Shown: positions 27,112 to 58,668 of the stretch, in pieces
Position numbering within the stretch: the stretch's first letter is position 1
How the letters are laid out: the number at the start of each line of letters is the position of its first letter
Assembly (NCBI GenBank): GCA_044892505.1
Contig: CM097883.1
Coordinates: 334,614,001 to 334,678,000 of the forward strand
DNA length: 64,000 bases
Source: Schmidtea nova
Lineage: Eukaryota
Direction of reading: 5' to 3'
Notes under the pieces: generated by a model
Told to the model about the DNA's origin: nothing
Database searches by the model: none
The model's input: the letters and a program-made list of their open reading frames with translations, nothing else
Made by a program: the position numbers and the translations under genes

Positions 27112-27459
27112 TGCTGCTGTGTTGGTTTGATGTACAACTGAGATCATTAAGATTTTATACGTTAGGGTGATCTCGCCAACATAAAAACATTCCCCCGCTG
27201 ACACCCATGATGTATCCCTAACTACTCATCATGTTGGTGCTGTGTCAACGTTGTGAAATGACAAGGCAGGTGAGCAACCTTTCGGCTACTATTCCCTTGT
27301 TTATTCACGGGTCCACCACTACCGATAGAAGGTGTCTGTGGATTTCTTTCGGTCCCACTTATGCTCTTTTCCATTGTTCTAGGGTGATCTACTCTTAGCG
27401 CATCTGCAGTTTAAATGAATCCGGGTTTTAGTTACATTCGATTCTCAGACATTCCACAA
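27112..27459 (-). repeat. Terminal 348-bp LTR stub (third copy of the LTR 3' end)
   Basis: Matches 29313-29660 and 55436-55783 (one mismatch seen, at 27117); forms the outer end next to the TSD. Confidence 0.92.
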
Positions 27460-28305
27460 GTCAATTAATGAGAACTCTGCTCCCTACGAGATTTATTTTT
27501 ACGGACGAGAACTATGCTCACTATGATGTTGCGTTTTATGACGAGACCTATGCTCACTAGGATGTTATTTTTATGACGAGACCTATGCTCACTATGAGAC
27601 CTATGCTCACGAACGAAAACTCGAAATATCATCTCTCAGTGGTTGCATGTGTTGCTTCGAGATGTTCCTCTCATTGGTCACTTATGCTTCTTCGGAGAAT
27701 CTATTGTCGTGTTTCGTTAAGTCCTATCTTTCAAGAACTATGGGCAAATCCTTTCTCTTTAGGACCCCTTTTATCATTTCCTTTCTTTCAAGGAATTCAT
27801 TTAACCTCGAGTTTTCCCTTTACTCGGCTCATCTACTACACCCCTTTATTCTGGTATCTATTTATCGACTTCTCTACTTGATTTTACTTTATGCGAGCTG
27901 ATTACGTGCCTTTCATCATCTACCACATTTCTCTACTCATCTTACTCATTTCATTGCTTTCGGTCTTTACTGATCAGTTTATCCTCCTATTTTTATAGTT
28001 TTTCTGCGCGCGCCTAAACCTCGTTGAGTTGTCCCTACCTTTCACCCCAACCAAAATATATAAAAAGATCGCATTGGTCCACTGATGCACGATGTGGTGA
28101 TCAGTCACATCACAAGAGTTTTCCAATATCCGCGATTGGATCCCTTTCTACACATCTCGGGTGAGTTGATCAGTTGGTTCCCCCCAATGGGTGCTTATCG
28201 GACTACTCGTGAGTAGCTCATAATTACTTAGGTCATTTTTACCAAATCATTGTTAAACCCTCATAATTTCAACAACAACTGCACTTGTTCAAAACTTTAT
28301 TTCTA

Positions 28306-28764
28306 TTACAAGTACACTGTTATTTTCTCGGATACGGGAAGGTTGCACATAGGACATCGTTCATTTATTTTACATTCATTACAGAATCGAAAATGCCCAC
28401 ACGGCAACAACATTATCTGTATCTTATTCATTTCACAGATATAACACGTCAGATATTGTCTCGTATGTTCGGTTGTTAGTCTTATCCATTCATCGTGTTT
28501 TGTTGTTAACTGTTGCTCTAGCCTGTGGCATTCGATATTCATTTCAGGGTTGTTTAATCTTTCTCTGTACCATTGATATCGTGTTGCGGTATCCACTGGG
28601 TTCTTATTCTCGCTTATGCTCATTATCATTTCGGCTCTTTCTGTGTTGTTTGTCGGCTCGTGATATCCTCCTACCTCGAGTCGTTTTAGCTTTCTCATTA
28701 TTATCTCCGTTGTCTCGTTGTTTGTTTCGAAAAACGTTTGCATTTCTTTTATTTTGTTCTCCAT
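28306..28764 (-). CDS. 152-aa protein with C-terminal IAP-type C3HC4 RING (copy in duplicated leader)
   Basis: CYIC..IMLLPCGHFRFCNEC..RCPMC..ITVYL; identical translation to 54429-54887. Confidence 0.88.
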   Translation of the reverse strand: MENKIKEMQTFFETNNETTEIIMRKLKRLEVGGYHEPTNNTERAEMIMSISENKNPVDTATRYQWYRERLNNPEMNIECHRLEQQLTTKHDEWIRLTTEHTRQYLTCYICEMNKIQIMLLPCGHFRFCNECKINERCPMCNLPVSEKITVYL

Positions 28765-29288
28765 CCCATGAATGAATTCTCATTAATTTTGTTATCGATT
28801 TTTATTTATTTATTTATCATTCCTATTCTATGGTAGCCCTACTGTTCGGTTTTTGCTGTTCTATTTCGCGCCACTGCGTATCCCCCCGTGTTCTTGAATG
28901 TCGCCCCGACATGATCATTGTTAGTTGCTCACACTCATACCATTTTCATGCACACTTTTCAGCATACTTTTACCTTACGTCATGCATACTTTTCCTCACT
29001 CTCATGCTGTTACTCCACATACTATTCATCATACTTCATTTATCCACATATTTTCACATTCACACTTTCATTCTCATGCATACTTTTATCATGCTCATCA
29101 TTTACTTATTTCACACTCATACTTTTATTTATTATTTTCCAACCCGATTCATTCTTGCTTCAGGACCCTCAAACCCTCTGTTATTCTTTACTTTACTTTT
29201 CCTCGCTAAATTCAATTCATCCCGGTTCATGCGCTCTAAGACTATCCGCCGATATCGAATTCACTTTTTCCCACAAAGATCGATTTAA

Positions 29289-29306
29289 TTCCCGGCTGAG
29301 CCCCCA
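29289..29306 (-). promoter_or_regulatory. Second primer-binding site (tRNA-Pro type) behind the 3' LTR
   Basis: Minus strand TGGGGGCTCAGCCGGGAA, 6 nt after the LTR CA end. Confidence 0.8.
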
Positions 29307-29698
29307 AATTTATGCTGGTGTGTTGGTTTGATGTACAACTGAGATCATTAAGATTTTATACGTTAGGGTGATCTCGCCAACATAAAAACATTCCCCCGCT
29401 GACACCCATGATGTATCCCTAACTACTCATCATGTTGGTGCTGTGTCAACGTTGTGAAATGACAAGGCAGGTGAGCAACCTTTCGGCTACTATTCCCTTG
29501 TTTATTCACGGGTCCACCACTACCGATAGAAGGTGTCTGTGGATTTCTTTCGGTCCCACTTATGCTCTTTTCCATTGTTCTAGGGTGATCTACTCTTAGC
29601 GCATCTGCAGTTTAAATGAATCCGGGTTTTAGTTACATTCGATTCTCAGACATTCCACAATCAAACAAGACAAGTCAAATCATTCGTTTACAATACAT

Positions 29699-30298
29699 TT
29701 ATTTACAATTTAATAACACCGAGGGTCTAATCACATTTAGGAGTTCTTGTTCAGATAGACCACTGAGTAAGTCTACTTCTATTCCTAGGCGATCGGCATA
29801 TGCACGTCGCTCTCTCCGCTTTTTCGCTCCTAAGCGATTCCTTCTCTTTGTTCGTTTTGAGCCTGCTGGAATTGTAGCTGTCACTGCAGTAGCTGTAGCT
29901 ATGGTCGATGCATTCTCCGTTTGGGTGCTCGTAGTCACCGCTATCGTGTCTACCCATCGATTAAAGGTGCTTGCTCTGATCCCGGGGCGCAATTGCTCGG
30001 TGATGAAATCTTGGGTCGACACCTTTAAGTAATTGGCCAGCTCTAATTTCAAGGCTGCAACCTCTCTGGCATATTCATCAGCTACTCGTTCCGCCCTGTA
30101 TCTAGCTTGCAGGATGGACTTAACTCTCTCTGGGTTAAACCATGTCGTCTTGATCCTCTGGTGCTCATCATTCAGCTGTCTTAACCGACTCTCCAGAACT
30201 CGTGAACGCGCCTTATGTTCTCGCGCCTCTTGCTTGAAATCTCTGTCCTTGGTTTCAGTCATGTCTGTAAATATATCATTAATTGTGGTATATGTCAT
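29699..30298 (-). CDS. LTR-encoded 199-aa coiled-coil protein with basic tail
   Basis: Intact sense ORF, identical in both LTRs; similar to ORF 2061-2585. Confidence 0.7.
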   Translation of the reverse strand: MTYTTINDIFTDMTETKDRDFKQEAREHKARSRVLESRLRQLNDEHQRIKTTWFNPERVKSILQARYRAERVADEYAREVAALKLELANYLKVSTQDFITEQLRPGIRASTFNRWVDTIAVTTSTQTENASTIATATAVTATIPAGSKRTKRRNRLGAKKRRERRAYADRLGIEVDLLSGLSEQELLNVIRPSVLLNCK

Positions 30299-30450
30299 TT
30301 GTCTGATCTCTCGGTCATCCTGTCGCCATTAAACAACTCCACCTTATCATCATGCTATTCTTATACACTCGAAAACAAAACAAGACCGTTCTCACACAAA
30401 TACATATATTTTTATATCTACGACAATCATTCTAGTTCGGGTTGTGTTGA

Positions 30451-31086
30451 TCAACTGAATGCTCTCAATTCCTGATCCGCAGTATGTTCATCGCGACGAA
30501 TTCCATTCTCCCAATACATTTCCGGGGCTGGGTTCCAACTCAGTTTATCTTTGTAGATAAACACCTCCCAGAGGCGAAGCTCCTCGAGCTCGGGGTGTTG
30601 TTCTAATGACACGCTTCCTGGCGCGTTGGAGTAGGCGAAGACTTCCTCAGTGTAGCGACACCGAGGCCTGTCTAACAGCGTGTATCCTAATCGATGAAGA
30701 GCCCTTCCCGTCATCATTTCATTACTCAATAACCAACGGGGTCGTTGCTGTCCATCGAGGAATTGATAGAACCATCGGTCGGTTCTTGGTTCGGCAGGGT
30801 CCAAGGTGGACATCCAATCGGGGTCTCCTTCCCATCGTAATTGTATCGTGAAGGCGCAAGCCGGAATATCGGCGGCTGCACTCATATGATGTCTTATCCA
30901 CCGGCGTAGGTGTCGACGTGCAATTTCGCTAATTCGGCGGGGAGCTTCTGTTTCTCCCTCGATGGTAGGGTTCCTCTTTGGCCGGATGATGGAACGGGTA
31001 CGTCGTTTTCTCTGGATGACATAATCCTCCACGTTCATATGTCGAGAGTCGATCAGATCCGTTTGGTATCCTTCTGTCTTTATCAT
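30451..31086 (-). CDS. LTR-encoded protein of unknown function (about 211 aa from the likely ATG at 31086; ORF track calls it from 31236)
   Basis: Intact sense ORF in both LTRs; ATG preceded by CTAAC...TTATCTTCAG|CCACATG. Confidence 0.7.
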   Translation of the reverse strand: MIKTEGYQTDLIDSRHMNVEDYVIQRKRRTRSIIRPKRNPTIEGETEAPRRISEIARRHLRRWIRHHMSAAADIPACAFTIQLRWEGDPDWMSTLDPAEPRTDRWFYQFLDGQQRPRWLLSNEMMTGRALHRLGYTLLDRPRCRYTEEVFAYSNAPGSVSLEQHPELEELRLWEVFIYKDKLSWNPAPEMYWENGIRRDEHTADQELRAFS

Positions 31087-32715
31087 GTGGCTGAAGATAA
31101 GAATTTTGTTAGTGTGATAGATTTGTCGGGTGAGCACAATTATTTGTACCCGTCGACCTACTCGACTTAAGGGTGAAACTCTGTAGGCTTCAGTCGGTGG
31201 TTCAGTGTTAAACCGGCCCGATGTTCGAGATACCATGTAGGTCGTATTTTATTATCATTGGTGGTGAATGCATTTATTCTATTGAGTATACTAGTTGGCC
31301 ACGCATAATTCATCGTGCCGTTTATGATAATTTATTTTTCATCTACGATGATCACTTGACCATTTATTATGTTTGAATGTTATTATCTGCGAGACATTTT
31401 TCGTTTCTATTCACAACAATCATGCTCAATCACTCCTCAGGTTTTATCTCCAAACATCATCCTCAACTACCAATGATCATCTTATCCGGGGAACACGCTC
31501 AATCCCTTACTCATACTAATTTGAGACTGGTCATACTATCGTCTCTTATTATGGGTGTTTACCTCTCATACCTTTCGAGGATTGCAAACGGGTGTTGAAA
31601 AAACATTGTGATTTATTATTAACCTCCGACACTGGTACTATTCGTCTCTTAACTTGTGTTACTTATGGCTCGCATGACCCTACTCTCGTCGTCATCAATG
31701 TCCCTGGTTACATATACCTACCGCTCGTTACGGTATTGCTACGACGTATATCGTTCGGGCTCAATTATCTTTACCTTTCTAGATATCCTATGTGCATTTA
31801 ACCCCTTTCCGTTTACTAAGTATTTAGTAAACCTATGGTCCCGCCGCATCAGCACCTCACATGGAAATGTGTTGTGCTGAGAGGCCCAAGAATCCGTCAG
31901 GCTGTTAGGCCTCCGGAAAACCTTATTGATTTTAATATGATTATAAAATTATGAGGGTTTAAACACATCAATAACATAACTCCAAATTACCTTTTATTTC
32001 CAATTCGGTTTTACAATGTCTTCCGTAAAAGTGACTGTTGTACTGATTTACCTTCAGTAAAAATGGCATTGTCAAATACTGATTTGACTTCAGTATTTAT
32101 ACTCAACCGGTGTTGTTGGTTAGCCAATCAGCATCGAGTATGTGTGTATGTTTGCTTCATTTTTTCATGTTGTCGGCTTTTTGCTGCCTAACTTAACTCA
32201 CCGATTTATTTGGTTAATCATGCGGTAAGTTTATTTTTTGTATGATTTAATTTTTATTTGATTTTGCTTTAGCTCTTCGGTGACATCCGCCCACGCGCTG
32301 TCATATTCAGATTTTATCTGCTTCGCATGAGTGAGTTCTTGAGTTTTATTTTGTTTTGGTTAATACTTTATTTCTTTTAGATGTTGCCGCTCATTTTGTT
32401 ACGCTTTGGTGTTGGTAATTTATTTTGTTGTTATTCTGTTGTAAATTTATTTTATTGATTGTATATTATTTTCAGATGCTGCTCGATTTGGCTGGCCCAA
32501 CATCACTCGGGGTCCCCTAAAATTGCGTCCCGCAATTACATGCATATACCTACATCAACATACATAAAAAGTTCGTGACAGAACTTACATGCAAAACCGC
32601 ATAAGGTGGTAGCTTTCATACGCATTTATACAAAGTCACACATTGTCATTGTCATGTTGATATTGTTTTTAGTTTATACACAGTTCAATGTTTCTGGCTC
32701 ATAGGGGTTCGATTC

Positions 32716-33240
32716 TCAGGTCCTTTCACTGGTTGACTGCATTTCGTATCGGGCTTGGATTTGTCGTAGATGGCTTCTCATTCTTTGTTGGGTTTTTGCT
32801 TCTCTTTTGGCGCATCTACACATTATCATTTGTTGTTGTTTGAGGCTTCTGATTCGGTACAGGGTATAGGTAATCACGATGATCAGGATGATTGTCAATA
32901 TTGTCATTGTGACTATTCCGACGATGATCCATCTGTTTCGGATTTCGGATTCGATTTGGGTTTGACCTTTGATTGGCTTTAGATGATCTTGAAATGTTCT
33001 ATGGACTTCTCGGATCTTCTCGATTTGATTGAATAGGGTTTGTAAGGGCTTGCGATGATCATGACTGATCCGCATTTGTCGGATTAATTGTTTCAAGTCT
33101 TCTCTGACTTCATTTAATTGTTTTTCAATCTCTTGGGATATCTCGTTCGACAGGGCTCTTTGTATTTCGGTTGTTGAACAGTTCATTATTGTTGTAGTTA
33201 ACATAATCGTTAGGATTGGTAGGGTTTTGAGCCAGTTCAT
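32716..33240 (-). CDS. 174-aa predicted type I membrane protein (signal peptide, helical ectodomain, TM, basic tail)
   Basis: MNWLKTLPILTIMLTTTIM N-terminus; WIIVGIVTMTILTIILIIVITYTLY hydrophobic segment; basic C-terminus with CRC. Confidence 0.8.
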   Translation of the reverse strand: MNWLKTLPILTIMLTTTIMNCSTTEIQRALSNEISQEIEKQLNEVREDLKQLIRQMRISHDHRKPLQTLFNQIEKIREVHRTFQDHLKPIKGQTQIESEIRNRWIIVGIVTMTILTIILIIVITYTLYRIRSLKQQQMIMCRCAKREAKTQQRMRSHLRQIQARYEMQSTSERT

Positions 33241-33314
33241 TTCTGATTATTCTACTGATTAATACCTGTTACATCGATTTGTACATTTCTTACACACGGA
33301 TTTTTCGCCTCTTT

Positions 33315-34475
33315 TTACACGCCCGTTTCCTCTGGTTCATGGAACCCTTCATCTTGGAGCTCCATTGGTGGTGGTGGTATAAACGGTAACCACACCACTC
33401 TACTTCTCCACATTGCGATTTCATCTTGATACGTTCGAGAGATTTGTATCTCTTCATCTAGCAGATACTCCATATAGTCTGATTGTTCGCTCAGAGTTTC
33501 AATTTGTCTTTCCATCTCCTCCACTTTTCTCTTCAGGGCTTCTACTTCTGTAGGTTCGGTTTCTACTTCTATGGTTTCCTTCTCTGCTTTCAGGGTTATT
33601 ATCTGCTGTTTCAGCTCCTCATTTTCTTTCGTCAAATTCGTTATGTTTTCCTCATAAGCTCGGTTTGATTCCGCATGTCTTTCTTTCACTGCTTTCAACT
33701 CCATTTTCTTTTTGGTCACTACTCCTTGGTAGCCATTTACGTCTCTTTCCAGACTTTCTTTTTCCCTGATCAACTTTTGTCTTTCCGCTTCCTCTTTCTG
33801 TCTAATACCTCGCATTTCTCCATTTATCATCTGTATTTGCCATTGCGTTTTCTTTAGTTCCTTTGCCTGTTCTCGAATAAATCGCTGTCGTTTTCGACTC
33901 CATTCTTTGTTTGCTTGTTCTTGTCGCTTTCTCTGTTCCAATTCCTCTTTCAATTCGTCTATCTCTTGATACAATTTCCAATCTTCGCTGTGTGCTGTCC
34001 TTCTGATTATCTCTTTGGCTTCTTTATACACTCGTTTCGACTCCATCTTCCAATGTCTCGCTTGAGCCTTGATTGCTAGTATTTTTACCTCCATCTTTTC
34101 CTCTTGTTTCTCCCTCTCTTCTCTTCGCGTTTTCATCATATTTTTATAATGTTCTGCTTGTTTCCTCATCAACTGATAGACCTCTTCTATCTTCTGTCGA
34201 CTTCGTACATTCGTTCCTTTTAGCTTCTCTATTTGTGTTGTCAGTTGTATCATCTCTTTATTCACTTCCTCGAGTTCTAGTTGATATAGCTCCATTCGTC
34301 TTTCGCATTTCAGTTTCTCGTAGAAATTGTTTGTCATCACTTCGTGTAATTCTCTGGTTCTTTGTTCTACTTCCACTTTATATCTCTTTTCGATTTCTCT
34401 TTCTATTGCTTCTCGTTCGTTCGCCATCTCGTTTCTCGTTTCATCTTCGATTACATGTTCATTTGCGTTTTCCAT
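33315..34475 (-). CDS. 386-aa long coiled-coil protein
   Basis: Intact ORF, E/K/R/Q-rich heptad character, no recognisable catalytic motif. Confidence 0.8.
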   Translation of the reverse strand: MENANEHVIEDETRNEMANEREAIEREIEKRYKVEVEQRTRELHEVMTNNFYEKLKCERRMELYQLELEEVNKEMIQLTTQIEKLKGTNVRSRQKIEEVYQLMRKQAEHYKNMMKTRREEREKQEEKMEVKILAIKAQARHWKMESKRVYKEAKEIIRRTAHSEDWKLYQEIDELKEELEQRKRQEQANKEWSRKRQRFIREQAKELKKTQWQIQMINGEMRGIRQKEEAERQKLIREKESLERDVNGYQGVVTKKKMELKAVKERHAESNRAYEENITNLTKENEELKQQIITLKAEKETIEVETEPTEVEALKRKVEEMERQIETLSEQSDYMEYLLDEEIQISRTYQDEIAMWRSRVVWLPFIPPPPMELQDEGFHEPEETGV

Positions 34476-34564
34476 TCTGTAATTTACAAATTTACACTTG
34501 TTATACTATATGTTTATTGTTGTTGTCGATTTTTATACTTTATTTACAGGGTCGTTCACTCTGA

Positions 34565-35977
34565 CTACTCTAACAATCCTTTCGTTGACTTCGTGTTCAT
34601 CACTGTTGTACTTGTTTTCTTTTCGATCTCCAACTCTACATATAAGTTGTCGTCGTACAACATTTCCCACATTGTTTGGTGTGGTATGAATTTTGGTTCT
34701 CCCGTCGCTAATGAACATTCTGTGGTTGGTCTTTTGTAAGCTTCGTGCTTACCATCAATTTTGAATACTCTCGCTATTGTTTCTTTCGAGTTTTTCACTC
34801 TCATTATAGCCTTTGTTTCTAGTGGCCATTCTAATATGTCGTCGTAACCACCTTTACACAACGCAAAGAATAATGACACATGCGTTTCCTTTCCTGATCC
34901 ATCTCCATTTGGATAAATTCTCATCCGGACTTTGTATCCGTTTTTCCACAGATAGAATGGTGGACTTGTTACCGACACTTGACTTCCTGCTTTTGCTGCT
35001 GTGAACTTTTCGTTGAAGTTCTTGATTTTCCATATATATGGTGCAACAGGTAAACTCTCGATATCCTCCGCATCTCGTATCCACATTTGATGTCGCACGT
35101 TTACTTCTTTTACCAATGTCTCTATGACTTTGATTTTCTCCATCATTTTCTCTCTGGTGAGCTCGAATTGCTCTCTCGTTTCCAGTAATAACTCCGTCAT
35201 TATCCTCTGAGATTCAATTTCTTTTCCCAGTTTCTGTATGGTTTGCTCCATTCCGTTCAAATTTTCTGTTAACATCTCGGCGTGTTGTACCGTTTCCGTT
35301 TCCAAATGCTCTTTCATCTCTTTGCTCGTTTTCTTTACTGCACATCCTTGTTTACTCCATACGCACTTTCTTGGTCTTGATTCGCATTGTTCCCAATGTT
35401 CTCTCAACATCACTTTTTCTCCGGTTCCACAATTACTTGGACAAATTCCTCTGAATTTTCCGCACACTTTCTCTTCTGCTACGTTGAGATGTTCTGTTTC
35501 GATTACTTCTCTCGTCTCTCTTTGTTCGCAGTATTGACACTCTATTATCTCTGCTTTGCACTCCTCCTTGTGATTTTTCGACTGCTTGATGGTTATCATC
35601 TGTTGACACTTTTCACATATCACTTTCTTGTTTTCGCATTTTCCCAGATGTTGTCTTAGCTCGATTATTTGTCCTTTCCACTCGCATGGTTGGTTTATAC
35701 ACTCTGTTTTTATCTTCCAGATCTCCTTTTGTATTGCTTTGTCTGGTTTAGTCTCGTTGATTAGTAGTTTATCGTCACACTCTGGACACTTTCTTGTCTC
35801 ACTTTCACTGATTATTTGTAATATACACTTGGTGCACATCCTGCATCCACATTCCGTTTGCCTCGGTTTTAACAGTAGATTTTTACACTTTACACACGTC
35901 ACATTTACTCCCCATTGTCGATTTTCTCTTCTTAGAATCTCGATCGTTTGGTAATCCGCTTCGCTTTCTGCTCTCAT
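34565..35977 (-). CDS. Full-length intronless TRAF-family protein (RING, TRAF zinc fingers, coiled coil, MATH/TRAF-C)
   Basis: CVKC..LLKPRQTECGCRMCTKC..CPEC; CEWKG..HLGKC; YIWKIKNF..SPPFY..GYKVRMRIYPNGDGSGKETHVSLFF..YDDILEWP. Confidence 0.96.
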   Translation of the reverse strand: MRAESEADYQTIEILRRENRQWGVNVTCVKCKNLLLKPRQTECGCRMCTKCILQIISESETRKCPECDDKLLINETKPDKAIQKEIWKIKTECINQPCEWKGQIIELRQHLGKCENKKVICEKCQQMITIKQSKNHKEECKAEIIECQYCEQRETREVIETEHLNVAEEKVCGKFRGICPSNCGTGEKVMLREHWEQCESRPRKCVWSKQGCAVKKTSKEMKEHLETETVQHAEMLTENLNGMEQTIQKLGKEIESQRIMTELLLETREQFELTREKMMEKIKVIETLVKEVNVRHQMWIRDAEDIESLPVAPYIWKIKNFNEKFTAAKAGSQVSVTSPPFYLWKNGYKVRMRIYPNGDGSGKETHVSLFFALCKGGYDDILEWPLETKAIMRVKNSKETIARVFKIDGKHEAYKRPTTECSLATGEPKFIPHQTMWEMLYDDNLYVELEIEKKTSTTVMNTKSTKGLLE

Positions 35978-36067: not shown

Positions 36068-36418
36068 CTATACATCCTCAGTTGAATCTGGCTCTGGATA
36101 CACGTCTATCTCATTTACAATCCAGCTCGTCCAACTATCCGGTATCTCTTCCTCTTCATGTCTCGTTAATCGGTCAATTTCCTCTGCTTGCCAGTTGTTT
36201 ACTTCATTTAATGTTCGATTCTCGTTCTGTAATTCGTTTATCTGTAGTTGTTGGATCTCGATTTTGTTCATTGCTTCGAAGTTACAGTTATAACTCTCGG
36301 TTAATAATTGCGTTTTGGCCGTCAACTGGCTCTGTAATTCATTTACTGTTCTGGCTAGCAGGTCACATTGTACTTTCCATCTTGTCATCATCGACATCTC
36401 TGTATTTTCTTGATTCAT
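36068..36418 (-). CDS. 116-aa short coiled-coil protein
   Basis: ATG-to-stop ORF co-oriented between pol and TRAF with short spacers. Confidence 0.65.
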   Translation of the reverse strand: MNQENTEMSMMTRWKVQCDLLARTVNELQSQLTAKTQLLTESYNCNFEAMNKIEIQQLQINELQNENRTLNEVNNWQAEEIDRLTRHEEEEIPDSWTSWIVNEIDVYPEPDSTEDV

Positions 36419-46774: not shown

Positions 46775-47195
46775 ATTGTATATCGTATACGAGATTGCTA
46801 CCAGATATTTGCTGTCCGTCTGCTCCGTTAAGTAGTCTTTTTATTAACATCGTGGTTCCTTGCCAATCCAGATGATTCGATTTTGTTTTGGCTTTTATCA
46901 ATTCTGGCATAATCGGTGCTATTGCATTGTGTAGCATCCTTGCCTTTGTACTAGGTTCGTTTATCCTCCACAAATTCTTTAATTCCGGGTCGATTATCGC
47001 CAACACATCCATTATCGTTTTGGTGAGCCATTCTTCTCCTTGACAGACTTGATTCTCCTCTTTTCCTCTGATTTCTGCGATTTTATCCAGTTTCTTCAAG
47101 CAAATCTCCCATTGCTCTTGTCTCCTTTCTTCCCTTGTCTTTGGGATTGTTGTTGCTGGATCTATCTTTGGTCTTCCTCTTGGTCGTTTCTCCAT
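46719..47195 (-). CDS. 158-aa ORF with AT-hook (KRPRGRPK) and N-terminal half of a Bcl-2-like domain; +1 shift joins it to the polyprotein
   Basis: Overlaps the polyprotein frame; removing one A from the A5 run (plus strand T 46838-46842) fuses the two. Confidence 0.6.
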   Translation of the reverse strand: MEKRPRGRPKIDPATTIPKTREERRQEQWEICLKKLDKIAEIRGKEENQVCQGEEWLTKTIMDVLAIIDPELKNLWRINEPSTKARMLHNAIAPIMPELIKAKTKSNHLDWQGTTMLIKRLLNGADGQQISGSNLVYDIQFANAKPRESEVKSDGKTY

Positions 47196-48459: not shown

Positions 48460-48525
48460 TCTGATGACATGTATTGTCTGATAATTATCCCATATGCCGA
48501 TTTTATACGCTCGTCTTTTGTCACG

Positions 48526-49275
48526 TTAATTCAGTAGATGTTCTTTGTATTTTATAGCGATGTCATCCTCGAATTCATCTTCCCGTTCTCGTTGTAATAT
48601 CGTCTCATTGATGACATCTACTATTTCTCCCACTTTACTATCTGGTATTACCTCAATTTGTCTTGTCTCTTCGTTCGGTAATCTCACAGTAATCTTCAGA
48701 TCTGATACCTCTCCTCGTTTAAACATTTCTTTTCCCATCTTTGCAATTAGCTTGTCCGTTTTGAAATTCGAATGCCTCGTTTGACTTGTATCTCGTATGT
48801 TCTCGATACACTGTTTCAAATTCTCATACTCGCTTTTCGTCAATTCCTTTCGATGTTTCTTGATTTGTTGGATGATCTGTTCTATCATCGTATTCAAATT
48901 CTCTGCTAAGATTCTTTCCTTTGCCTCTAGCAACTGAGGTTTTATTCTCATCTCATAACACGTATTCGCTTCTTTGACGATTCCTTGTAAGTTCTCTTCC
49001 TTCTTGGTGTTGCATATAGATAACGTTGTTATTTCTCCTGGCCAGATGCCTGTATCTATCATATGCGTTCTTTTTCTTACCAATCCGTTTTCTGAGTATA
49101 TGAATTTGTCTTTGTACGAGCTTCCCAATCTGTCCTCAACCCATCGATATATTCCATCCGTCATTGGGTTCTTTATCCAGATTCTCGGTGAACACTCGTT
49201 TATCCATATTTGTATTACGTATTCGTTCAGTGGTTCTTTCAATAACTTCTCTATGAACTCTTGTATTACTCTCAC
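48526..49275 (-). CDS. 249-codon ORF after gag; ubiquitin-like domain runs across its stop codon
   Basis: LKITVRLPNEETRQIEVIPDSKVGEI..IKYKEHLLN*RDKRRAYKIGIWDNYQTIHVIR; GTG start overlaps the gag TGA. Confidence 0.65.
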   Translation of the reverse strand: MRVIQEFIEKLLKEPLNEYVIQIWINECSPRIWIKNPMTDGIYRWVEDRLGSSYKDKFIYSENGLVRKRTHMIDTGIWPGEITTLSICNTKKEENLQGIVKEANTCYEMRIKPQLLEAKERILAENLNTMIEQIIQQIKKHRKELTKSEYENLKQCIENIRDTSQTRHSNFKTDKLIAKMGKEMFKRGEVSDLKITVRLPNEETRQIEVIPDSKVGEIVDVINETILQREREDEFEDDIAIKYKEHLLN

Positions 49276-51704
49276 TTCTCTTTCTTGTAACCCTCTTTAT
49301 ACTTCATTTGCCATACTGCTCGTATAAACTTTCGGTATCGTTTCTTGTCGATAAACTCTTCGTTGTGGATTACTTCTAACGCGTTATCCATCAGCTTCTG
49401 AATTTCGTCTTCCCTTACTGACACTGTTTCTATTGTCTCGACTACTTCCATCTTTTTATCCTCGTTTTCCGGTTCCTTTAGCATGTCTCCTGCCAGACTG
49501 CTAACTTCGCTGTCGTCTTCTTCATCTGACAACTCTTGTCTTGGGTGTCTCAGCATCCCAATATGTGCGATTGGTCTCGCTTCGTTTTTGCTAACTTCCT
49601 GTATTAGTTCATTCTCGTTTCCCGTTATTTCAGCTTTTCCCATTCTTTTCTCCAATTCGTCTATTTCTTCCAACCGTCTTCGTCTTATTTTTCCCTTGAA
49701 TATTCGACTGATCCGAGTTTGATGTTTCACTGGTGGTGGGATTTTCTCCGGTTCCACCTCTCTGATGATCATCACGTTTATTTTCGTCTCTGTTACTCCC
49801 ATATCTTCCCATATATCAGTCATCTTTAACTTCACTTCCGGTAAATCTTCTGTTTGTAGGAATGCTTCTCTGGGCAGTTTCGTTACTCCCGGAATCATCT
49901 CATTTACTTTATTGAACAATCTTCCCACTTCTTCTTTTACATCGTATTTGAATCGCCACACGTGATCATTCGGCATGATCACCAACATTCCTCTTTGTTT
50001 GATTCTCACTTCCTCTTCTTGATTCGTTTCTTTTTCTATTTCTTTTTCTGTTTCTGTTTCTTTTTCTACTTCTTCCACTTTTTGATTCTGCTCTGCGGCT
50101 TCTACTTCCTGATTCACTTCTTCTTGTTTCTGCTCTTCGTTTCTTTTCTCTTTAATTTCTAACTCGTCTGACTCATCCTGCTGCTTCTCTTCCATCATTG
50201 CTCGCATCATGTTGATCCTTGGATTTCCCTTTTTTAACTGTTGTAATCGTTGTTGCCTGACTTGTTCTTCTTCTCGTCGTACTCTAGTCCATTCTTGATT
50301 ATGTTTCTGTTGGCTTTCTCTATTTTCTCTTTCGGCCTCAGCTTCTATTAGCTGGATCATGTTTATCTTTGGTTGAGCAGCTTGCTGGCTTCCCTTTGCC
50401 ATGCTTTCGATTATCTCGTGTAATCTGGATACTTCCTGTCTCAACTTGGCTTCTTTTATACTGGCTTCATTTGCACTGCCATTTGGGTTGTTCCGTTGTT
50501 GACCCTGATTCCCATAGCTTGGTCGATTTCCGTAATTCTGTCTATTTCCACTGTTTGACCAACTTCTCTGTTGATTACAGTCTCTTGACATGTGTCCGGT
50601 TTTTCCACATGTGTAACACGTTTTCCCATAACATCGATTTTCTGAGTGACCCTTTTGTCCACACAGTTTGCAGGCTACATTCTGAAAACAATCTTGTTGC
50701 CAATGTCCGTTTTTCCCACACGTCTGACATTGCCTATTCTGCCTGTCATTGTAACTATTTCCTCCATTCGTGTTTACTGTGATATATCCGTTATTCTTCC
50801 TCGCTGGCGGTTCTTTGAACAATCTCTGCGAATGGGGAATACTTTGATTCATGTTTCTTTTTCCTTGTTCTTCGTCTTCTGTCGTTTTTCCCATTACCGC
50901 CGTAATTCTCATGTCATTCATTGCCATATGCAATTCGAATAGGTTGGCTGCTTCCAACGCTTCATCTACTGTTTTACATCCTTTGCATCCCACTTGTGCT
51001 CTGATGTCAGGTCTCCTGAGACCTCGTACGAATAACGCTGTCATCAATTCTTCGTCTACTGGGCTTCCTCTATTGAATGCCAGTTTCGCCAACTTTCTTA
51101 ATTCACTTGCGTACACCGCATTTGACTCATTTCTCCTCTGTTTTCTTGCTGAGAACTCATCGAATGCTTCATTCAGCACTTTGTTTATCCCAAACGTCTG
51201 TTGGAAGAACTCCTTGATCGCTTCCCACGTTCTGGGTGGACTACTTCCAGATCTCTTTTCGATATACAGGTCCAATGCGCTATCTTTCAAGTATAGCGGG
51301 ATTCGATTTGCCAACGTTTCTGCACTCCATCCGCATATATCTACGAATATGCCAAATTCCTTCAGAAACGTGTCCAATCTACTGGCGTCTCCATTGAATG
51401 GTTCGCCCTTGAATTTTACTCTTAGATCCTCTCTGTGGTCACTCATCCCGATTCCACTGTCTTGGAATACTGTACTAGTTTTCTTTGCTTCTGTTTCACC
51501 ACTTGTTTCTGGATTCAACTCCTCTTCTTCACTACTCTCTGTTTCGTTATCTCTTGACTCGCTTCTTGTTCTGTTTTCACTGACTAGTTCACTGTCAATC
51601 GTTTCTACTTCGTTTCGTACTTCTGGATCCTCTGGGGTTTCTTCTTGATTCTCTTTATTACTCGAATTGTCGCTGATTTCTGCTTGTTTGTTCTTTTGTT
51701 GCAC
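49272..51704 (-). CDS. gag: Gag with capsid domain, three CCHC zinc knuckles and long acidic C-terminal extension
   Basis: PFNGD..FL..F..W..LKDSAL..W..F..RKQ..ES..Y..L..FVRGL; CQTCGKNGHWQQDC, CKLCGQKGHSENRC, CYTCGKTGHMSRDC; first ATG at 51446; frame stays open upstream to an in-frame TGA at 51894-51896. Confidence 0.95.
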   Translation of the reverse strand: MQQKNKQAEISDNSSNKENQEETPEDPEVRNEVETIDSELVSENRTRSESRDNETESSEEEELNPETSGETEAKKTSTVFQDSGIGMSDHREDLRVKFKGEPFNGDASRLDTFLKEFGIFVDICGWSAETLANRIPLYLKDSALDLYIEKRSGSSPPRTWEAIKEFFQQTFGINKVLNEAFDEFSARKQRRNESNAVYASELRKLAKLAFNRGSPVDEELMTALFVRGLRRPDIRAQVGCKGCKTVDEALEAANLFELHMAMNDMRITAVMGKTTEDEEQGKRNMNQSIPHSQRLFKEPPARKNNGYITVNTNGGNSYNDRQNRQCQTCGKNGHWQQDCFQNVACKLCGQKGHSENRCYGKTCYTCGKTGHMSRDCNQQRSWSNSGNRQNYGNRPSYGNQGQQRNNPNGSANEASIKEAKLRQEVSRLHEIIESMAKGSQQAAQPKINMIQLIEAEAERENRESQQKHNQEWTRVRREEEQVRQQRLQQLKKGNPRINMMRAMMEEKQQDESDELEIKEKRNEEQKQEEVNQEVEAAEQNQKVEEVEKETETEKEIEKETNQEEEVRIKQRGMLVIMPNDHVWRFKYDVKEEVGRLFNKVNEMIPGVTKLPREAFLQTEDLPEVKLKMTDIWEDMGVTETKINVMIIREVEPEKIPPPVKHQTRISRIFKGKIRRRRLEEIDELEKRMGKAEITGNENELIQEVSKNEARPIAHIGMLRHPRQELSDEEDDSEVSSLAGDMLKEPENEDKKMEVVETIETVSVREDEIQKLMDNALEVIHNEEFIDKKRYRKFIRAVWQMKYKEGYKKEK

Positions 51705-52408
51705 TGTTTTACTTCCTGGTCTTGTCCTCTTCGCTGTTTTTCTTTCTTCTTCTGTTAGGATAGGTTCTGTATCGACCTTTTGTTGCGCTAATTTAGCTGC
51801 TGCTTTTGCCTTTTTTGTTGCTTTTCTTTCTGCTTCTGTTAGGATTGGTATTGTACCTGCCCTTGTTTCGCGTTCCGCAATTTTGTCTATTCCTCAACTT
51901 CTTATATTCTCAACTGATTTTCTACTTCGCTTTTGCTTTGCTTCTTCTTTGATTTGTTTCCTTGGAATTGCTCTGACTGCTAGATTGCTTTGAATTGCTT
52001 GATTGATTTGTTTCCTTAAAACAAATAATCACTTACACGATACGTCCCCGTTATCGTGTTTCTCGTCCCTCTCACGGGTGTAGTCATAATTCATGAAGAT
52101 CCCCATTTTTCCCATTTCCCTTGATTTTAAGTCTATTTAAATTATCTATGCAGTCGTATCAATTATCTATTCTTTATCAAATACACCAATTACTTTTCCC
52201 CAGTTTCCCAATTACTTTGTCGCTCAGCGCTCTTATTATCCCCTTTACTTTTCTCAGGCTTCTCTGGCTCTGAGTTCAAATTTCCCCTTATCTGCCGACT
52301 ACTCTGTTTCTCAACTATTCGCTTTATTTCTTATTCACACTGCGTTTACTACTTCATTTCGATTCTCATCTCTACTCATCTTTAATTCTACTGACATTTC
52401 TCGTTGGC

Positions 52409-52867
52409 CTGCTGGGTTTTCCAGTCAGCGCTTTTAATCTCACCTTTTATCTCGAGCTCTGTTCTCTCAACTTCACTCATTATCTCATTAGCCTGCTGGG
52501 TTTTCCAGTCAGCGCTTTTAATCTCACCTTTTACTGTTATCTCGTTATTCTCGACCACGACTGTCGTTTCATTAGCCTGCTGGGTTTTCCAGTCAGCGCT
52601 TTATTACTCTCCATTTATCTCTTTACTATCGACTTTTAACTGCTCTTTATTTCGATGATCATCGCCTTTGACCTGCTGGGTTATCCAGTCAGCGTCCTCA
52701 GTTTCACCACTTTGTTATTACTCACTTTTATTCTCTCGATCTTTCCTGATCGTTATCATTGACCTGCTGGGTTTTCCAGACAGCGTCTTTACCACTTTAC
52801 TGTCTTAACAAACCGGTTTCATTTTATTCCCATCGAATCTCATGGTCTGCTGGGTTTTCCAGTCAGC
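52409..52867 (-). promoter_or_regulatory. Array of six conserved 21-nt hairpins in the 5' leader
   Basis: ctgctgggttttccagtcagc at 52409, 52493, 52577, 52673, 52764, 52847; spacing 83-96 nt. Confidence 0.75.
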
Positions 52868-53195
52868 ACCCTTCACTTACTCACTTTACTTTACTACTCC
52901 TCTGTATGCATACTTTATCGTCGTTAGGCCACATAATCAGCTTTACTCGCATTTATCAATACCCAGGTGCGCACCTTCAACTCTCTCGTTATTAATTCGG
53001 TTTCTTTCAACCCTTATTCCTCATTATTCGCTATTCATTTTCACTATTCATCATTTATCCTCATTATCACTTATTCATCTCCATTATCGCTTATTGATCT
53101 TCACTATCCGGATAGTTTTATACTTTATTTAGTCCTCATCTGCCTCACTTCGTCGTCTTTCTCGTGGGCTTTTTACTCACTATCTTATTTCAAAC

Positions 53196-53735
53196 GAGAA
53201 CTATGCTCACAGCTGAGAACTATGCTCACTAACGAGAACTATGCTCAATGACGAGAGCTATGCTCAATGACGAGAACTATGCTCACTAACGAGAACTATG
53301 CTCAATGACGAGAACTATGCTCAATGACGAGAACTATGCTCACTGACGAGAACTATGCTCACTGTGGAGAACTATGCTCACTGGCAAAACATGGTTGTTA
53401 TGAGGGTTTTGCTTACTGATGGAAACTCTTTGCTCCGGGGACTATGTTCCCCGATGAGAACTATGCTCACTGATGGTGACTACAGGAATTATGTTTCCTG
53501 ATGAGAACTAAGCTCACTACGATGACTATGTTTATTGATGAGAACTACGCTCACTGATGAGGACTATGTTCGCTGGTCTTGTGTTTATTAATGAGAACTC
53601 TGCTCCCTACGAGATTTATTTTTACGGACGAGAACTATGCTCACTATGATGTTGCGTTTTATGACGAGACCTATGCTCACTAGGATGTTATTTTTATGAC
53701 GAGACCTATGCTCACTATGAGACCTATGCTCACGA
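53196..53735. repeat. 19-bp tandem array (gagaactatgctca + 5 variable nt) with dispersed degenerate copies
   Basis: Ten head-to-tail units 53196-53385, then about eight spaced variants to about 53735. Confidence 0.92.
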
Positions 53736-54428: not shown

Positions 54429-54887
54429 TTACAAGTACACTGTTATTTTCTCGGATACGGGAAGGTTGCACATAGGACATCGTTCATTTATTTTACATTC
54501 ATTACAGAATCGAAAATGCCCACACGGCAACAACATTATCTGTATCTTATTCATTTCACAGATATAACACGTCAGATATTGTCTCGTATGTTCGGTTGTT
54601 AGTCTTATCCATTCATCGTGTTTTGTTGTTAACTGTTGCTCTAGCCTGTGGCATTCGATATTCATTTCAGGGTTGTTTAATCTTTCTCTGTACCATTGAT
54701 ATCGTGTTGCGGTATCCACTGGGTTCTTATTCTCGCTTATGCTCATTATCATTTCGGCTCTTTCTGTGTTGTTTGTCGGCTCGTGATATCCTCCTACCTC
54801 GAGTCGTTTTAGCTTTCTCATTATTATCTCCGTTGTCTCGTTGTTTGTTTCGAAAAACGTTTGCATTTCTTTTATTTTGTTCTCCAT
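54429..54887 (-). CDS. 152-aa protein with C-terminal IAP-type C3HC4 RING, in the 5' leader
   Basis: CxxC..PCGH..CxxC..CPxC at the extreme C-terminus; no BIR motif seen. Confidence 0.88.
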   Translation of the reverse strand: MENKIKEMQTFFETNNETTEIIMRKLKRLEVGGYHEPTNNTERAEMIMSISENKNPVDTATRYQWYRERLNNPEMNIECHRLEQQLTTKHDEWIRLTTEHTRQYLTCYICEMNKIQIMLLPCGHFRFCNECKINERCPMCNLPVSEKITVYL

Positions 54888-55411
54888 CCCCTGAATGAAT
54901 TCTCATTAATTTTGTTATCGATTTTTATTTATTTATTTATCATTCCTATTCTATGGTAGCCCTACTGTTCGGTTTTTGCTGTTCTATTTCGCGCCACTGC
55001 GTATCCCCCCGTGTTCTTGAATGTCGCCCCGACATGATCATTGTTAGTTGCTCACACTCATACCATTTTCATGCACACTTTTCAGCATACTTTTACCTTA
55101 CGTCATGCATACTTTTCCTCACTCTCATGCTGTTACTCCACATACTATTCATCATACTTCATTTATCCACATATTTTCACATTCACACTTTCATTCTCAT
55201 GCATACTTTTATCATGCTCATCATTTACTTATTTCACACTCATACTTTTATTTATTATTTTCCAACCCGATTCATTCTTGCTTCAGGACCCTCAAACCCT
55301 CTGTTATTCTTTACTTTACTTTTCCTCGCTAAATTCAATTCATCCCGGTTCATGCGCTCTAAGACTATCCGCCGATATCGAATTCACTTTTTCCCACAAA
55401 GATCGATTTAA

Positions 55412-55429
55412 TTCCCGGCTGAGCCCCCA
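55412..55429 (-). promoter_or_regulatory. Primer-binding site, tRNA-Pro type
   Basis: TGGGGGCTCAGCCGGGAA matches the canonical tRNA-Pro PBS TGGGGGCTCGTCCGGGAT at 15/18 positions; 6 nt after the 5' LTR. Confidence 0.82.
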
Positions 55430-55821
55430 AATTTATGCTGGTGTGTTGGTTTGATGTACAACTGAGATCATTAAGATTTTATACGTTAGGGTGATCTCGC
55501 CAACATAAAAACATTCCCCCGCTGACACCCATGATGTATCCCTAACTACTCATCATGTTGGTGCTGTGTCAACGTTGTGAAATGACAAGGCAGGTGAGCA
55601 ACCTTTCGGCTACTATTCCCTTGTTTATTCACGGGTCCACCACTACCGATAGAAGGTGTCTGTGGATTTCTTTCGGTCCCACTTATGCTCTTTTCCATTG
55701 TTCTAGGGTGATCTACTCTTAGCGCATCTGCAGTTTAAATGAATCCGGGTTTTAGTTACATTCGATTCTCAGACATTCCACAATCAAACAAGACAAGTCA
55801 AATCATTCGTTTACAATACAT

Positions 55822-56421
55822 TTATTTACAATTTAATAACACCGAGGGTCTAATCACATTTAGGAGTTCTTGTTCAGATAGACCACTGAGTAAGTCTACT
55901 TCTATTCCTAGGCGATCGGCATATGCACGTCGCTCTCTCCGCTTTTTCGCTCCTAAGCGATTCCTTCTCTTTGTTCGTTTTGAGCCTGCTGGAATTGTAG
56001 CTGTCACTGCAGTAGCTGTAGCTATGGTCGATGCATTCTCCGTTTGGGTGCTCGTAGTCACCGCTATCGTGTCTACCCATCGATTAAAGGTGCTTGCTCT
56101 GATCCCGGGGCGCAATTGCTCGGTGATGAAATCTTGGGTCGACACCTTTAAGTAATTGGCCAGCTCTAATTTCAAGGCTGCAACCTCTCTGGCATATTCA
56201 TCAGCTACTCGTTCCGCCCTGTATCTAGCTTGCAGGATGGACTTAACTCTCTCTGGGTTAAACCATGTCGTCTTGATCCTCTGGTGCTCATCATTCAGCT
56301 GTCTTAACCGACTCTCCAGAACTCGTGAACGCGCCTTATGTTCTCGCGCCTCTTGCTTGAAATCTCTGTCCTTGGTTTCAGTCATGTCTGTAAATATATC
56401 ATTAATTGTGGTATATGTCAT
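55822..56421 (-). CDS. LTR-encoded 199-aa coiled-coil protein (5' LTR copy)
   Basis: Identical translation to 29699-30298. Confidence 0.7.
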   Translation of the reverse strand: MTYTTINDIFTDMTETKDRDFKQEAREHKARSRVLESRLRQLNDEHQRIKTTWFNPERVKSILQARYRAERVADEYAREVAALKLELANYLKVSTQDFITEQLRPGIRASTFNRWVDTIAVTTSTQTENASTIATATAVTATIPAGSKRTKRRNRLGAKKRRERRAYADRLGIEVDLLSGLSEQELLNVIRPSVLLNCK

Positions 56422-56573
56422 TTGTCTGATCTCTCGGTCATCCTGTCGCCATTAAACAACTCCACCTTATCATCATGCTATTCTTATACACTCGAAAACA
56501 AAACAAGACCGTTCTCACACAAATACATATATTTTTATATCTACGACAATCATTCTAGTTCGGGTTGTGTTGA

Positions 56574-57209
56574 TCAACTGAATGCTCTCAATTCCTGATC
56601 CGCAGTATGTTCATCGCGACGAATTCCATTCTCCCAATACATTTCCGGGGCTGGGTTCCAACTCAGTTTATCTTTGTAGATAAACACCTCCCAGAGGCGA
56701 AGCTCCTCGAGCTCGGGGTGTTGTTCTAATGACACGCTTCCTGGCGCGTTGGAGTAGGCGAAGACTTCCTCAGTGTAGCGACACCGAGGCCTGTCTAACA
56801 GCGTGTATCCTAATCGATGAAGAGCCCTTCCCGTCATCATTTCATTACTCAATAACCAACGGGGTCGTTGCTGTCCATCGAGGAATTGATAGAACCATCG
56901 GTCGGTTCTTGGTTCGGCAGGGTCCAAGGTGGACATCCAATCGGGGTCTCCTTCCCATCGTAATTGTATCGTGAAGGCGCAAGCCGGAATATCGGCGGCT
57001 GCACTCATATGATGTCTTATCCACCGGCGTAGGTGTCGACGTGCAATTTCGCTAATTCGGCGGGGAGCTTCTGTTTCTCCCTCGATGGTAGGGTTCCTCT
57101 TTGGCCGGATGATGGAACGGGTACGTCGTTTTCTCTGGATGACATAATCCTCCACGTTCATATGTCGAGAGTCGATCAGATCCGTTTGGTATCCTTCTGT
57201 CTTTATCAT
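56574..57209 (-). CDS. LTR-encoded protein of unknown function (5' LTR copy)
   Basis: Identical translation to the 3' LTR copy. Confidence 0.7.
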   Translation of the reverse strand: MIKTEGYQTDLIDSRHMNVEDYVIQRKRRTRSIIRPKRNPTIEGETEAPRRISEIARRHLRRWIRHHMSAAADIPACAFTIQLRWEGDPDWMSTLDPAEPRTDRWFYQFLDGQQRPRWLLSNEMMTGRALHRLGYTLLDRPRCRYTEEVFAYSNAPGSVSLEQHPELEELRLWEVFIYKDKLSWNPAPEMYWENGIRRDEHTADQELRAFS

Positions 57210-58115
57210 GTGGCTGAAGATAAGAATTTTGTTAGTGTGATAGATTTGTCGGGTGAGCACAATTATTTGTACCCGTCGACCTACTCGACTTAAGGGTGAA
57301 ACTCTGTATGCTTCAGTCGGTGGTTCAGTGTTAAACCGGCCCGATGTTCGAGATACCATGTAGGTCGTATTTTATTATCATTGGTGGTGAATGCATTTAT
57401 TCTATTGAGTATACTAGTTGGCCACGCATAATTCATCGTGCCGTTTATGATAATTTATTTTTCATCTACGATGATCACTTGACCATTTATTATGTTTGAA
57501 TGTTATTATCTGCGAGACATTTTTCGTTTCTATTCACAACAATCATGCTCAATCACTCCTCAGGTTTTATCTCCAAACATCATCCTCAACTACCAATGAT
57601 CATCTTATCCGGGGAACACGCTCAATCCCTTACTCATACTAATTTGAGACTGGTCATACTATCGTCTCTTATTATGGGTGTTTACCTCTCATACCTTTCG
57701 AGGATTGCAAACGGGTGTTGAAAAAACATTGTGATTTATTATTAACCTCCGACACTGGTACTATTCGTCTCTTAACTTGTGTTACTTATGGCTCGCATGA
57801 CCCTACTCTCGTCGTCATCAATGTCCCTGGTTACATATACCTACCGCTCGTTACGGTATTGCTACGACGTATATCGTTCGGGCTCAATTATCTTTACCTT
57901 TCTAGATATCCTATGTGCATTTAACCCCTTTCCGTTTACTAAGTATTTAGTAAACCTATGGTCCCGCCGCATCAGCACCTCACATGGAAATGTGTTGTGC
58001 TGAGAGGCCCAAGAATCCGTCAGGCTGTTAGGCCTCCGGAAAACCTTATTGATTTTAATATGATTATAAAATTATGAGGGTTTAAACACATCAATAACAT
58101 AACTCCAAATTACCT

Positions 58116-58251
58116 TTTATTTCCAATTCGGTTTTACAATGTCTTCCGTAAAAGTGACTGTTGTACTGATTTACCTTCAGTAAAAATGACATTGTCAAAT
58201 ACTGATTTGACTTCAGTATTTATACTCAACCGGTGTTGTTGGTTAGCCAAT
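58116..58251 (-). promoter_or_regulatory. Candidate LTR promoter and poly(A) region
   Basis: CCAAT (plus strand 58247-58251), minus-strand TATAAATAC (58224-58216), donor-like AAG|GTAAAT (58175/58174), AATAAA (58121-58116). Confidence 0.45.
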
Positions 58252-58668
58252 CAGCATCGAGTATGTGTGTATGTTTGCTTCATTTTTTCATATTGTCGGC
58301 TTTTTGCTGCCTAACTTAACTCACCGATTTATTTGGTTAATCATGCGGTAAGTTTATTTTTTGTATGATTTAATTTTTATTTGATTTTGCTTTAGCTCTT
58401 CGGTGACATCCGCCCACGCGCTGTCATATTCAGATTTTATCTGCTTCGCATGAGTGAGTTCTTGAGTTTTATTTTGTTTTGGTTAATACTTTATTTCTTT
58501 TAGATGTTGCCGCTCATTTTGTTACGCTTTGGTGTTGGTAATTTATTTTGTTGTTATTCTGTTGTAAATTTAGTTTATTGATTGTATATTATTTTCAGAT
58601 GCTGCTCGATTTGGCTGGCCCAACATTCATCATCCTTCTCAATTTCTACCTTAAGGCAAAATTGTATT

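Follow-up and report, generated by a model that had tools for sequence, protein, structure and literature searches.

Burro-type elements and the window family

Giant elements of the Burro/GYPSM1 type are the closest described systems to the retroelement analysed here, which lies on the minus strand at positions 27112-58625 of a 64,000-nucleotide stretch of Schmidtea nova DNA (contig CM097883.1; hereafter the window, whose numbering is used throughout, with all element genes on the minus strand). Burro/GYPSM1 elements exceed 30 kb, with an internal region of up to 25 kb and a first open reading frame (ORF1) of 4,873-5,140 aa that contains gag, Ubi2/SUMO-like, MATH_TRAF_C and BCL2-like domains, env in frame before pol, ankyrin, BIR and Smc (PMC6431247 section 7). 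The same section notes that Burro accessory ORFs may occur as polyprotein subdomains, proposes integrated proviruses, and already suggests that Burro meddles with apoptosis and ubiquitination; it reports BIR for GYPSM1 and places a dUTPase-like segment of Burro between protease (PR) and reverse transcriptase (RT). Likeness extends to the GAG-ENV-POL HSV/gB-type errantiviruses of Platyhelminthes, Nematoda and Bryozoa, which, as described in the main text of PMC13524379, have a Ty3/gypsy pol, a class III chuvirus/gB-like env before pol and a recent multicopy distribution. Unlike the window family, the elements kept in that survey have their long terminal repeats (LTRs) spaced 5-14 kb apart, and its main text contains none of the words Burro, ankyrin, fibronectin, Bcl, TRAF and accessory.

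We found that the element in the window and its siblings share with Burro1-4 and GYPSM1 of Schmidtea mediterranea, and with the Burro-like element of Dugesia tigrina, a size of ~30 kb, tandem repeats and many young copies. They also share MATH/TRAF and a single ORF of ~5,000 aa in which a three-CCHC gag, a ubiquitin-like (Ubl, Ubi/SUMO-like) part, a likely BCL2-like segment and an in-frame env precede PR, RT, ribonuclease H (RH) and integrase (IN), with ankyrin repeats in the same frame. The initial annotation had seen novelty in the cargo set. This has to be given up, because MATH/TRAF, BIR, BCL2-like, Ubi/SUMO-like, ankyrin and in-frame env are published for Burro (PMC6431247 section 7); the giant Burro-type element and its cargo set are already known, and a new kind of element does not stand. 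The arrangement does differ: MATH lies inside the polyprotein in Burro1 and in an upstream ORF in D. tigrina, whereas the window family has a full RING-Zf-MATH gene downstream and, unlike GYPSM1, an IAP-type RING without BIR. It further carries four Ubl units, a tail of four FN3 repeats with a transmembrane (TM) helix, and additional accessory ORFs. Neither the tail nor the accessory ORFs are mentioned in PMC6431247 section 7, our selection analysis has no counterpart there, and neither the FN3 tail nor selection on Burro cargo was found in open-access literature text. The present analysis adds purifying selection on env and on each part of the cargo, the FN3-TM tail, the full downstream TRAF, a count of four Ubl units, and two young copies that lack close parents among the candidates scored. 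The architecture points to a planarian host.

Selection on envelope and cargo

Family searches scored the best 40 of 721-838 candidates; with TRAF as query (721 candidates) all 40 scored were 96-100% identical. In the ten siblings selected from this directly observed multicopy family, gag to env forms one open frame in 6/10 and both polyprotein stretches are open in 1/10, the polyprotein spanning 15.35 kb or ~5,100 codons. Where separate ORFs for gag, env, pol and cargo had originally been described, there is thus one polyprotein for gag, Ubl, Bcl-2-like, env, pol and ankyrin. All four accessory ORFs further downstream remain open in 10/10 siblings, and the leader RING ORF is open in all nine that include it, one having lost its ATG.

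We estimated dN/dS pairwise (Nei-Gojobori, codon bootstrap) across 10-11 copies, in pairs that are not independent. A coverage and identity filter dropped one copy each for RING, gag_CA, Ubl1 and Ubl3, and the LTR ORFs were kept out of the filtered set because DNA alignment at ~80% identity is unreliable. Values were 0.003 for RT and 0.014 for IN, 0.034 for gag_CA (10 rows after the filter) and 0.022 (0.012-0.035) for env in 11 copies. For the cargo we obtained 0.026 and 0.045 for the two halves of the Bcl-2-like domain, 0.06-0.11 for the Ubl units, 0.084 for ankyrin, 0.105 (0.077-0.148) for TRAF, 0.17 for RING, 0.19 for FN3 and 0.07-0.15 for other accessory ORFs. All upper bounds fell below 0.30, and shifted-frame controls gave 0.66-12. 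Every cargo part, and env as well, is under purifying selection across up to 11 copies, which is a direct observation. Missing or decayed cargo in other copies, or dN/dS near 1, had been named in the initial annotation as grounds for abandoning its view; neither was seen, as the cargo is open in siblings and dN/dS lies far below 1.

The copies are young. LTR pairs are 99.67-100% identical in 9/9 measurable siblings, and 55 copy pairs are 94.4-95.9% identical in the pol-ankyrin region. Among the best 40 candidates scored, no relative exceeds 98% identity, either for the window copy or for a copy whose two LTRs are identical, and parental copies may be absent from this single assembly. A sister family in the same genome has many equal-scoring copies, which argues against generalising the lack of close parents.

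Overall, we think it probable that the window holds a damaged young Burro-type giant Ty3/gypsy insertion, from a family whose env and cargo aid the element's own replication, in that the producing cell stays alive and quiet while enveloped particles likely reach other cells. The likely reason for the purifying selection on env and the host-like cargo is that both help the element to replicate. Genomic RNA primed by tRNA-Pro would yield one gag-Ubl-Bcl2-env-pol-ankyrin-FN3 polyprotein of ~5,000 aa, to be cut apart by the element's protease and host signal peptidase, while expression of RING, TRAF and the remaining accessory genes would go through spliced transcripts. The TRAF, RING, Bcl-2-like, Ubl and ankyrin products might then damp death and innate signalling, and env would carry particles between cells. 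In favour of this account, BURRO1 RNA is present in piRNA-depleted differentiated cells after smedwi-2 knock-down (PMC8532177), and a T-rich YAG lies ≤8 nt from 5/5 non-LTR accessory ATGs versus 6/118 internal Met codons and is kept at 49/49 sibling sites. The host-manipulation biology of the initial annotation is plausible, and domain names suggest that the cargo could act on cell death or TNF/NF-kB signalling. Poxviruses, herpesviruses and baculoviruses carry viral Bcl-2, ankyrin proteins, RING E3s, IAPs and v-ubiquitin as host-modulation genes. The window family has the same broad domain classes on a selfish replicon, as an analogy only: unlike those DNA viruses, it has no BIR and no conjugatable ubiquitin, and its TRAF and FN3 parts are closest to animal proteins.

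The env under purifying selection that marks infectious errantiviruses is found here, and in vertebrate endogenous retroviruses low env dN/dS is taken as the sign of spreading through reinfection (PMC3128044). A bolder proposal, which we regard as possible but doubtful, is that Burro elements are proviruses of a living infectious 29-kb Ty3/gypsy flatworm virus with an accessory set in the style of large DNA viruses (TRAF, RING, Bcl-2 mimic, ankyrins, FN3 surface protein), that young insertions come from a diverse circulating pool and not from genomic parents, and that part of the planarian TRAF/MATH transcripts is viral. Such a pool would explain why copies with near-identical LTRs differ by 3-6%, mostly at silent sites. 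The constraint on env makes infectious spread a testable question in a stem-cell-rich, tractable animal. With the selection data, the published cargo idea moves from a list of domain names to the proposition that every one of its parts serves the element. For planarian work there is also a caution, since TRAF/MATH, Bcl-2-like and RING transcripts may derive from Burro-type elements.

The same selection could arise in a Burro-type element if the cargo served particle biology and not host signalling. Assembly, budding, trafficking and the quality control of the polyprotein would then draw on Ubl units, coiled coils, RING/TRAF and ankyrins as scaffolds or ubiquitin handles, while the Bcl-2-like helices would form a membrane-facing linker ahead of env. 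The Ubl, Bcl-2-like, ankyrin and FN3 parts are indeed in frame with gag/env/pol; the Bcl-2-like segment stands just before env in three families examined, under constraint equal to that of env; and the window family has neither a recognisable BH1 consensus nor BIR. We nevertheless hold this reading to be rather unlikely, as a complete RING-Zf-MATH TRAF is kept as a separate gene, MATH shifts between in-frame and accessory positions across families in a way that fits a diffusible signalling adaptor, and the corresponding segment of the ~3,060-codon family described below retains Pfam Bcl-2 similarity. An env dN/dS of 0.022, as low as that of integrase or protease, and a copy with identical LTRs for which the best 40 candidates include no relative above 97% speak against copying confined to cells, in which env would serve membrane budding or neighbour-cell transfer within one animal and the scarcity of close relatives would reflect polymorphic parents missing from the assembly, recombination or LTR homogenisation. 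Relatives were judged from the best 40 of 721-838 candidates, and the many equal-scoring copies of the sister family are what in-genome bursts would give, so this alternative retains a small share of the probability.

Passive capture of host DNA as the source of the cargo, or its retention through selection acting on the host, seems very improbable, and this reading is largely refuted by dN/dS across copies. The cargo domains are of host type, and >121 MATH/TRAF transcripts are reported for planarian transcriptomes in the available text of PMC7586133, which does not mention transposons. Yet the cargo is intronless, its TRAF is 25-30% identical to the nearest database TRAFs, and it is open in 10/10 dispersed young copies, with purifying selection acting between copies at unrelated loci.

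Several points weigh against the replication-aid explanation that we favour. The ten siblings behind the non-independent pairs were chosen as good matches, which favours intact copies, and assignment to Burro was made by layout and domain order. From the selection one can conclude that the cargo benefits the element, but not that it has an anti-apoptotic function. With no BIR and no Gly-Gly, the element encodes neither an IAP mimic nor a conjugatable ubiquitin. According to the available text of PMC8532177, neither BURRO1 RNA interference nor RT inhibitors rescue the smedwi-2 phenotype; the available text of PMC11410931 has a single mention of Burro. The distance threshold for the YAG sites was chosen after the sites were viewed, and one LTR ORF has no YAG site and the other a T-poor one. 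The structural model of the Bcl-2-like domain is of low confidence (predicted local distance difference test, pLDDT, 54): Foldseek places BFL1 first at E 0.48, and the VIA search gives two viral Bcl-2 proteins at ranks 33 and 41 amid unrelated helical folds. Finally, hhalign against four host Bcl-2-like ORFs gave a probability of 1.4%.

Domains of the polyprotein and accessory genes

In the window copy the polyprotein frame is interrupted by three frameshifts, near 49.3k, 47.3k and 46.8k (versus 9, 9 and 10 of 10 siblings, respectively), and by a premature stop at ~48.5k; the stop falls within a Ubl unit and the last frameshift within the Bcl-2-like domain. These four breaks make gag, Ubl and Bcl-2 look like separate ORFs in this copy. 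Programmed frameshifts and separate gag/Ubl/Bcl-2 genes were rejected, since the breaks are private to the window copy. Judged from its sequence, this copy is unable to make an intact polyprotein.

The first polyprotein piece (49272..51893), which ends at a private frameshift, comprises the gag capsid (51446-50922), three CCHC knuckles (50729-50577), a coiled coil and ubiquitin-fold unit 1 (49997-49755). The second (48526..49296; dN/dS 0.09 and 0.06) holds unit 2 (49227-49006) and the first part of unit 3 (48705-48532) and ends at the premature stop; the third (47257..48525; dN/dS 0.09) holds the rest of unit 3 and unit 4 (47874-47650) and ends at a frameshift. There follow, at 46646..47189, an AT-hook-like motif (47189-47166) and the Bcl-2-like helical domain (47132-46646), which is split by the frameshift near 46.8k. 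The in-frame envelope (44708..46531) consists of a short hydrophobic signal-like segment, a class III fusion ectodomain of Monjiviricetes/chuvirus type (Pfam PF24664, E 1.6e-66) and a TM helix. PR, RT, RH and IN (41138..44143) were assigned with Pfam; a spacer is present between PR and RT, in which Pfam gave no match. The two ankyrin-repeat clusters lie at 39161..40468 (Pfam Ank_2, E 5e-21). The frame closes at 36722..38419 with a predicted surface protein (dN/dS 0.19 and 0.15) in which four FN3-fold repeats (38419-37037), three of whose cysteines are invariant, precede a TM helix at the C-terminus (36787-36722). A word of the form (R/K/H)-I-x-(M/A/V)-hydrophobic recurs behind gag, RH and IN and ahead of PR, in the window family and the sister family alike, and is a candidate protease-site motif.

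The initial annotation listed TRAF, an IAP-type RING, two Ubl domains, a Bcl-2-like domain and ankyrin repeats beside gag/env/pol, and treated recovery of the Bcl-2, Ubl and RING assignments by profile searches as a test of its view. TRAF, RING, ankyrin and gag/env/pol are confirmed, and profiles recover both the RING and the ubiquitin fold; the Ubl units number four, and support for Bcl-2 is indirect only. Single ubiquitin-fold units score below Pfam cut-offs. When the four repeats of the window family and three of the sister family were aligned, the resulting element-only profile matched ubiquitin at positions 4-78 of 80 (E 5e-4), and then Atg8 and Npl4. Gly-Gly does not occur in the ubiquitin-fold region. 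The four FN3-like repeats with their three invariant cysteines are common to the sister family by alignment, and their profile matches Tie2 and fibronectin FN3 domains. One repeat was modelled at pLDDT 85 and has FN3 domains as top rows with both Foldseek and VIA (VIA Z 8.1, root-mean-square deviation 2.8 Å, 74 residues); the remaining three were assigned by alignment.

TRAF is a full-length, intronless gene of 470 aa (34565..35977) with RING, Zf-TRAF, coiled coil and MATH (E 9e-27) in family order, its RING having a Cys in place of the usual His. The leader ORF (54429..54887, 152 aa) encodes a coiled coil and an IAP-type C3HC4 RING (Pfam zf-C3HC4_3, E 3e-9), whose best PDB relatives are the cIAP/XIAP/ML-IAP RINGs (E 3.5e-6). 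Pfam gave no BIR match and six-frame inspection no BIR motif, so that of the BIR and RING of the IAP family only the RING is present. BIR/IAP and viral-ubiquitin readings were rejected, for want of a BIR motif and of Gly-Gly, respectively. Three further accessory ORFs lie downstream: one of 116 aa with a coiled coil and no family (36068..36418; dN/dS 0.07; open in 10/10 siblings), one of 386 aa with a long coiled coil (33315..34475; 0.12) and one of 174 aa with a signal-like N-terminus, a coiled coil and a TM helix (32716..33240; 0.15).

In the window family, the Bcl-2-like segment had no match by Pfam or single-sequence PDB search and no usable match in the Atlas protein search, its model had no significant match to viral structures in the viral fold library, and its BH1 consensus is not recognisable. 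A genome scan with Pfam Bcl-2 gave 141 matches among 150 scored, many of them in ~3,060-codon frames at the homologous place before env. The segment of this ~3,060-codon family matches Pfam Bcl-2 in 5/10 members of a set (A1), with a best E of 5e-8; its core and that of the window family align by blastp at 25 bits, a score reached by 0/100 shuffles. An element-only profile has Bcl-xL, Mcl-1 and Bcl-2 in nearly all 60 rows, at E 0.16 or worse, with a BH2-like motif driving the match. In all three families examined the segment stands directly before env. The domain is likely, though not proven, to be Bcl-2-like. Four intronless Bcl-2-family ORFs elsewhere in the genome (open frames of 173-315 aa) exceed the Pfam cut-off and may be host genes or other mobile cargo.

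A search of 1.84 billion representative proteins returned a single match, P0008, which is 31-37% identical and has the Burro1 layout with MATH in frame. The sister family likewise has the Burro1 layout, with MATH within a frame of 4,992-5,006 codons; its LTRs measure ~4.4 kb, and it carries a single ankyrin cluster together with four FN3-like repeats. A compact relative in the same genome measures ~14 kb, with identical 1,045-bp LTRs and a ~3,060-codon gag-Bcl2-env-pol frame, downstream of which lie two ORFs (242 and 584 aa) that have no Pfam matches.

Element ends, the 3' extension and surroundings

The window sequence holds one element with TG..CA ends, starting with TGTTGGGC at 58625 and ending with CAGCA at 27112, between copies of a 4-bp target-site duplication (TSD) TTCA at 27108..27111 and 58626-58629; in siblings, a TSD was seen by eye in 9/9 that have both LTRs. 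The single young 31.5-kb element of the initial annotation is thereby confirmed, as are the six substitutions it counted over a terminal duplication of ~5 kb: self-comparison of the window gave a 5,040-bp duplication (27464-32503 versus 53587-58626) with exactly 6 substitutions and 0 gaps, as well as another repeat, of 359 bp, at the element's left end. The LTR proper is 3,190 bp long, the 5' copy lying at 55436..58625 with its CA end at 55436 and the 3' copy, with 4 substitutions, at 29313..32502; sibling LTRs measure 3.13-3.31 kb. A 5-kb LTR was rejected; the extra 2.2 kb is private to the window copy.

The primer-binding site (PBS; 55413..55429) is complementary to the 3' end of host tRNA-Pro(UGG), the complementary word occurring in tandem host tRNA genes of which ARAGORN called 4/5 in one stretch as tRNA-Pro. 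The PR-RT-RH-IN order, CCHC gag, TG..CA LTRs, PBS and 4-bp TSD, all observed directly, are those of Ty3/gypsy elements. Between the LTR end and the PBS lie 6 nt (55430-55435), as in siblings, and the usual distance is 0-3 nt; unusual end processing may be implied. The tRNA-Pro(UGG) genes form a long tandem array with a 308-bp period at 459.61-459.66 Mb of the same genome, with 1,105 pattern matches genome-wide.

Beyond the 3' LTR, the duplication continues into a copy-specific 3' extension (27112..29312) made of a second PBS and a repeated leader with RING ORF (29312-27465, differing by 2 substitutions) and, fused to these, the final 353 bp of an LTR. The extension is seen in 0/10 sibling copies, which end normally; a usual copy is ~29.3 kb long against 31.5 kb in the window, with an internal region of 22.9 kb. 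Four substitutions in the LTR and two in the repeated leader indicate equal age, which makes it likely that the extension dates from insertion, with template switching or a tandem intermediate as its likely origin. For the lesions and the extension of the window copy, the most probable time of origin is its own reverse transcription or later. Because the genome contains the junction a single time, we rejected a replicating subfamily carrying the long 3' end; splicing as its origin was also rejected, no GT..AG being visible by eye. Among contigs of four sequencing runs over 26700-27800, none bridged the flank or extension junction, so the contigs are compatible with assembly error as well as with a genuine origin of the extension and of the four lesions.

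Tandem repeats with 84-, 19- and 35-bp units occupy the leader at 52399..53717. Two ORFs without assigned function lie inside the LTR (57359-56574, 261 aa; 56421-55822, 199 aa), with dN/dS of 0.27 and 0.11 on a rough alignment. They remain open (~180-260 aa) in siblings despite 77-89% identity between copies there; Pfam found no family for either, and the Atlas protein search gave only sub-0.9 matches for LTR ORF B. The element's sense strand is A- and G-rich, with a strong strand bias (AT skew to -0.5 on the plus strand over 27000-58000).

Outside the element, the window contains an open hAT transposase ORF of 637 aa with a BED finger and dimerisation domain (22634-24547, plus strand) and a near-perfect 55-bp palindrome (98%, 1-nt loop) at 21451-21561. 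A short dispersed repeat is present in two copies (85-91%) at 7222-7603 and 58879-59253, the latter directly beyond the element's right flank and adjoining an N stretch.

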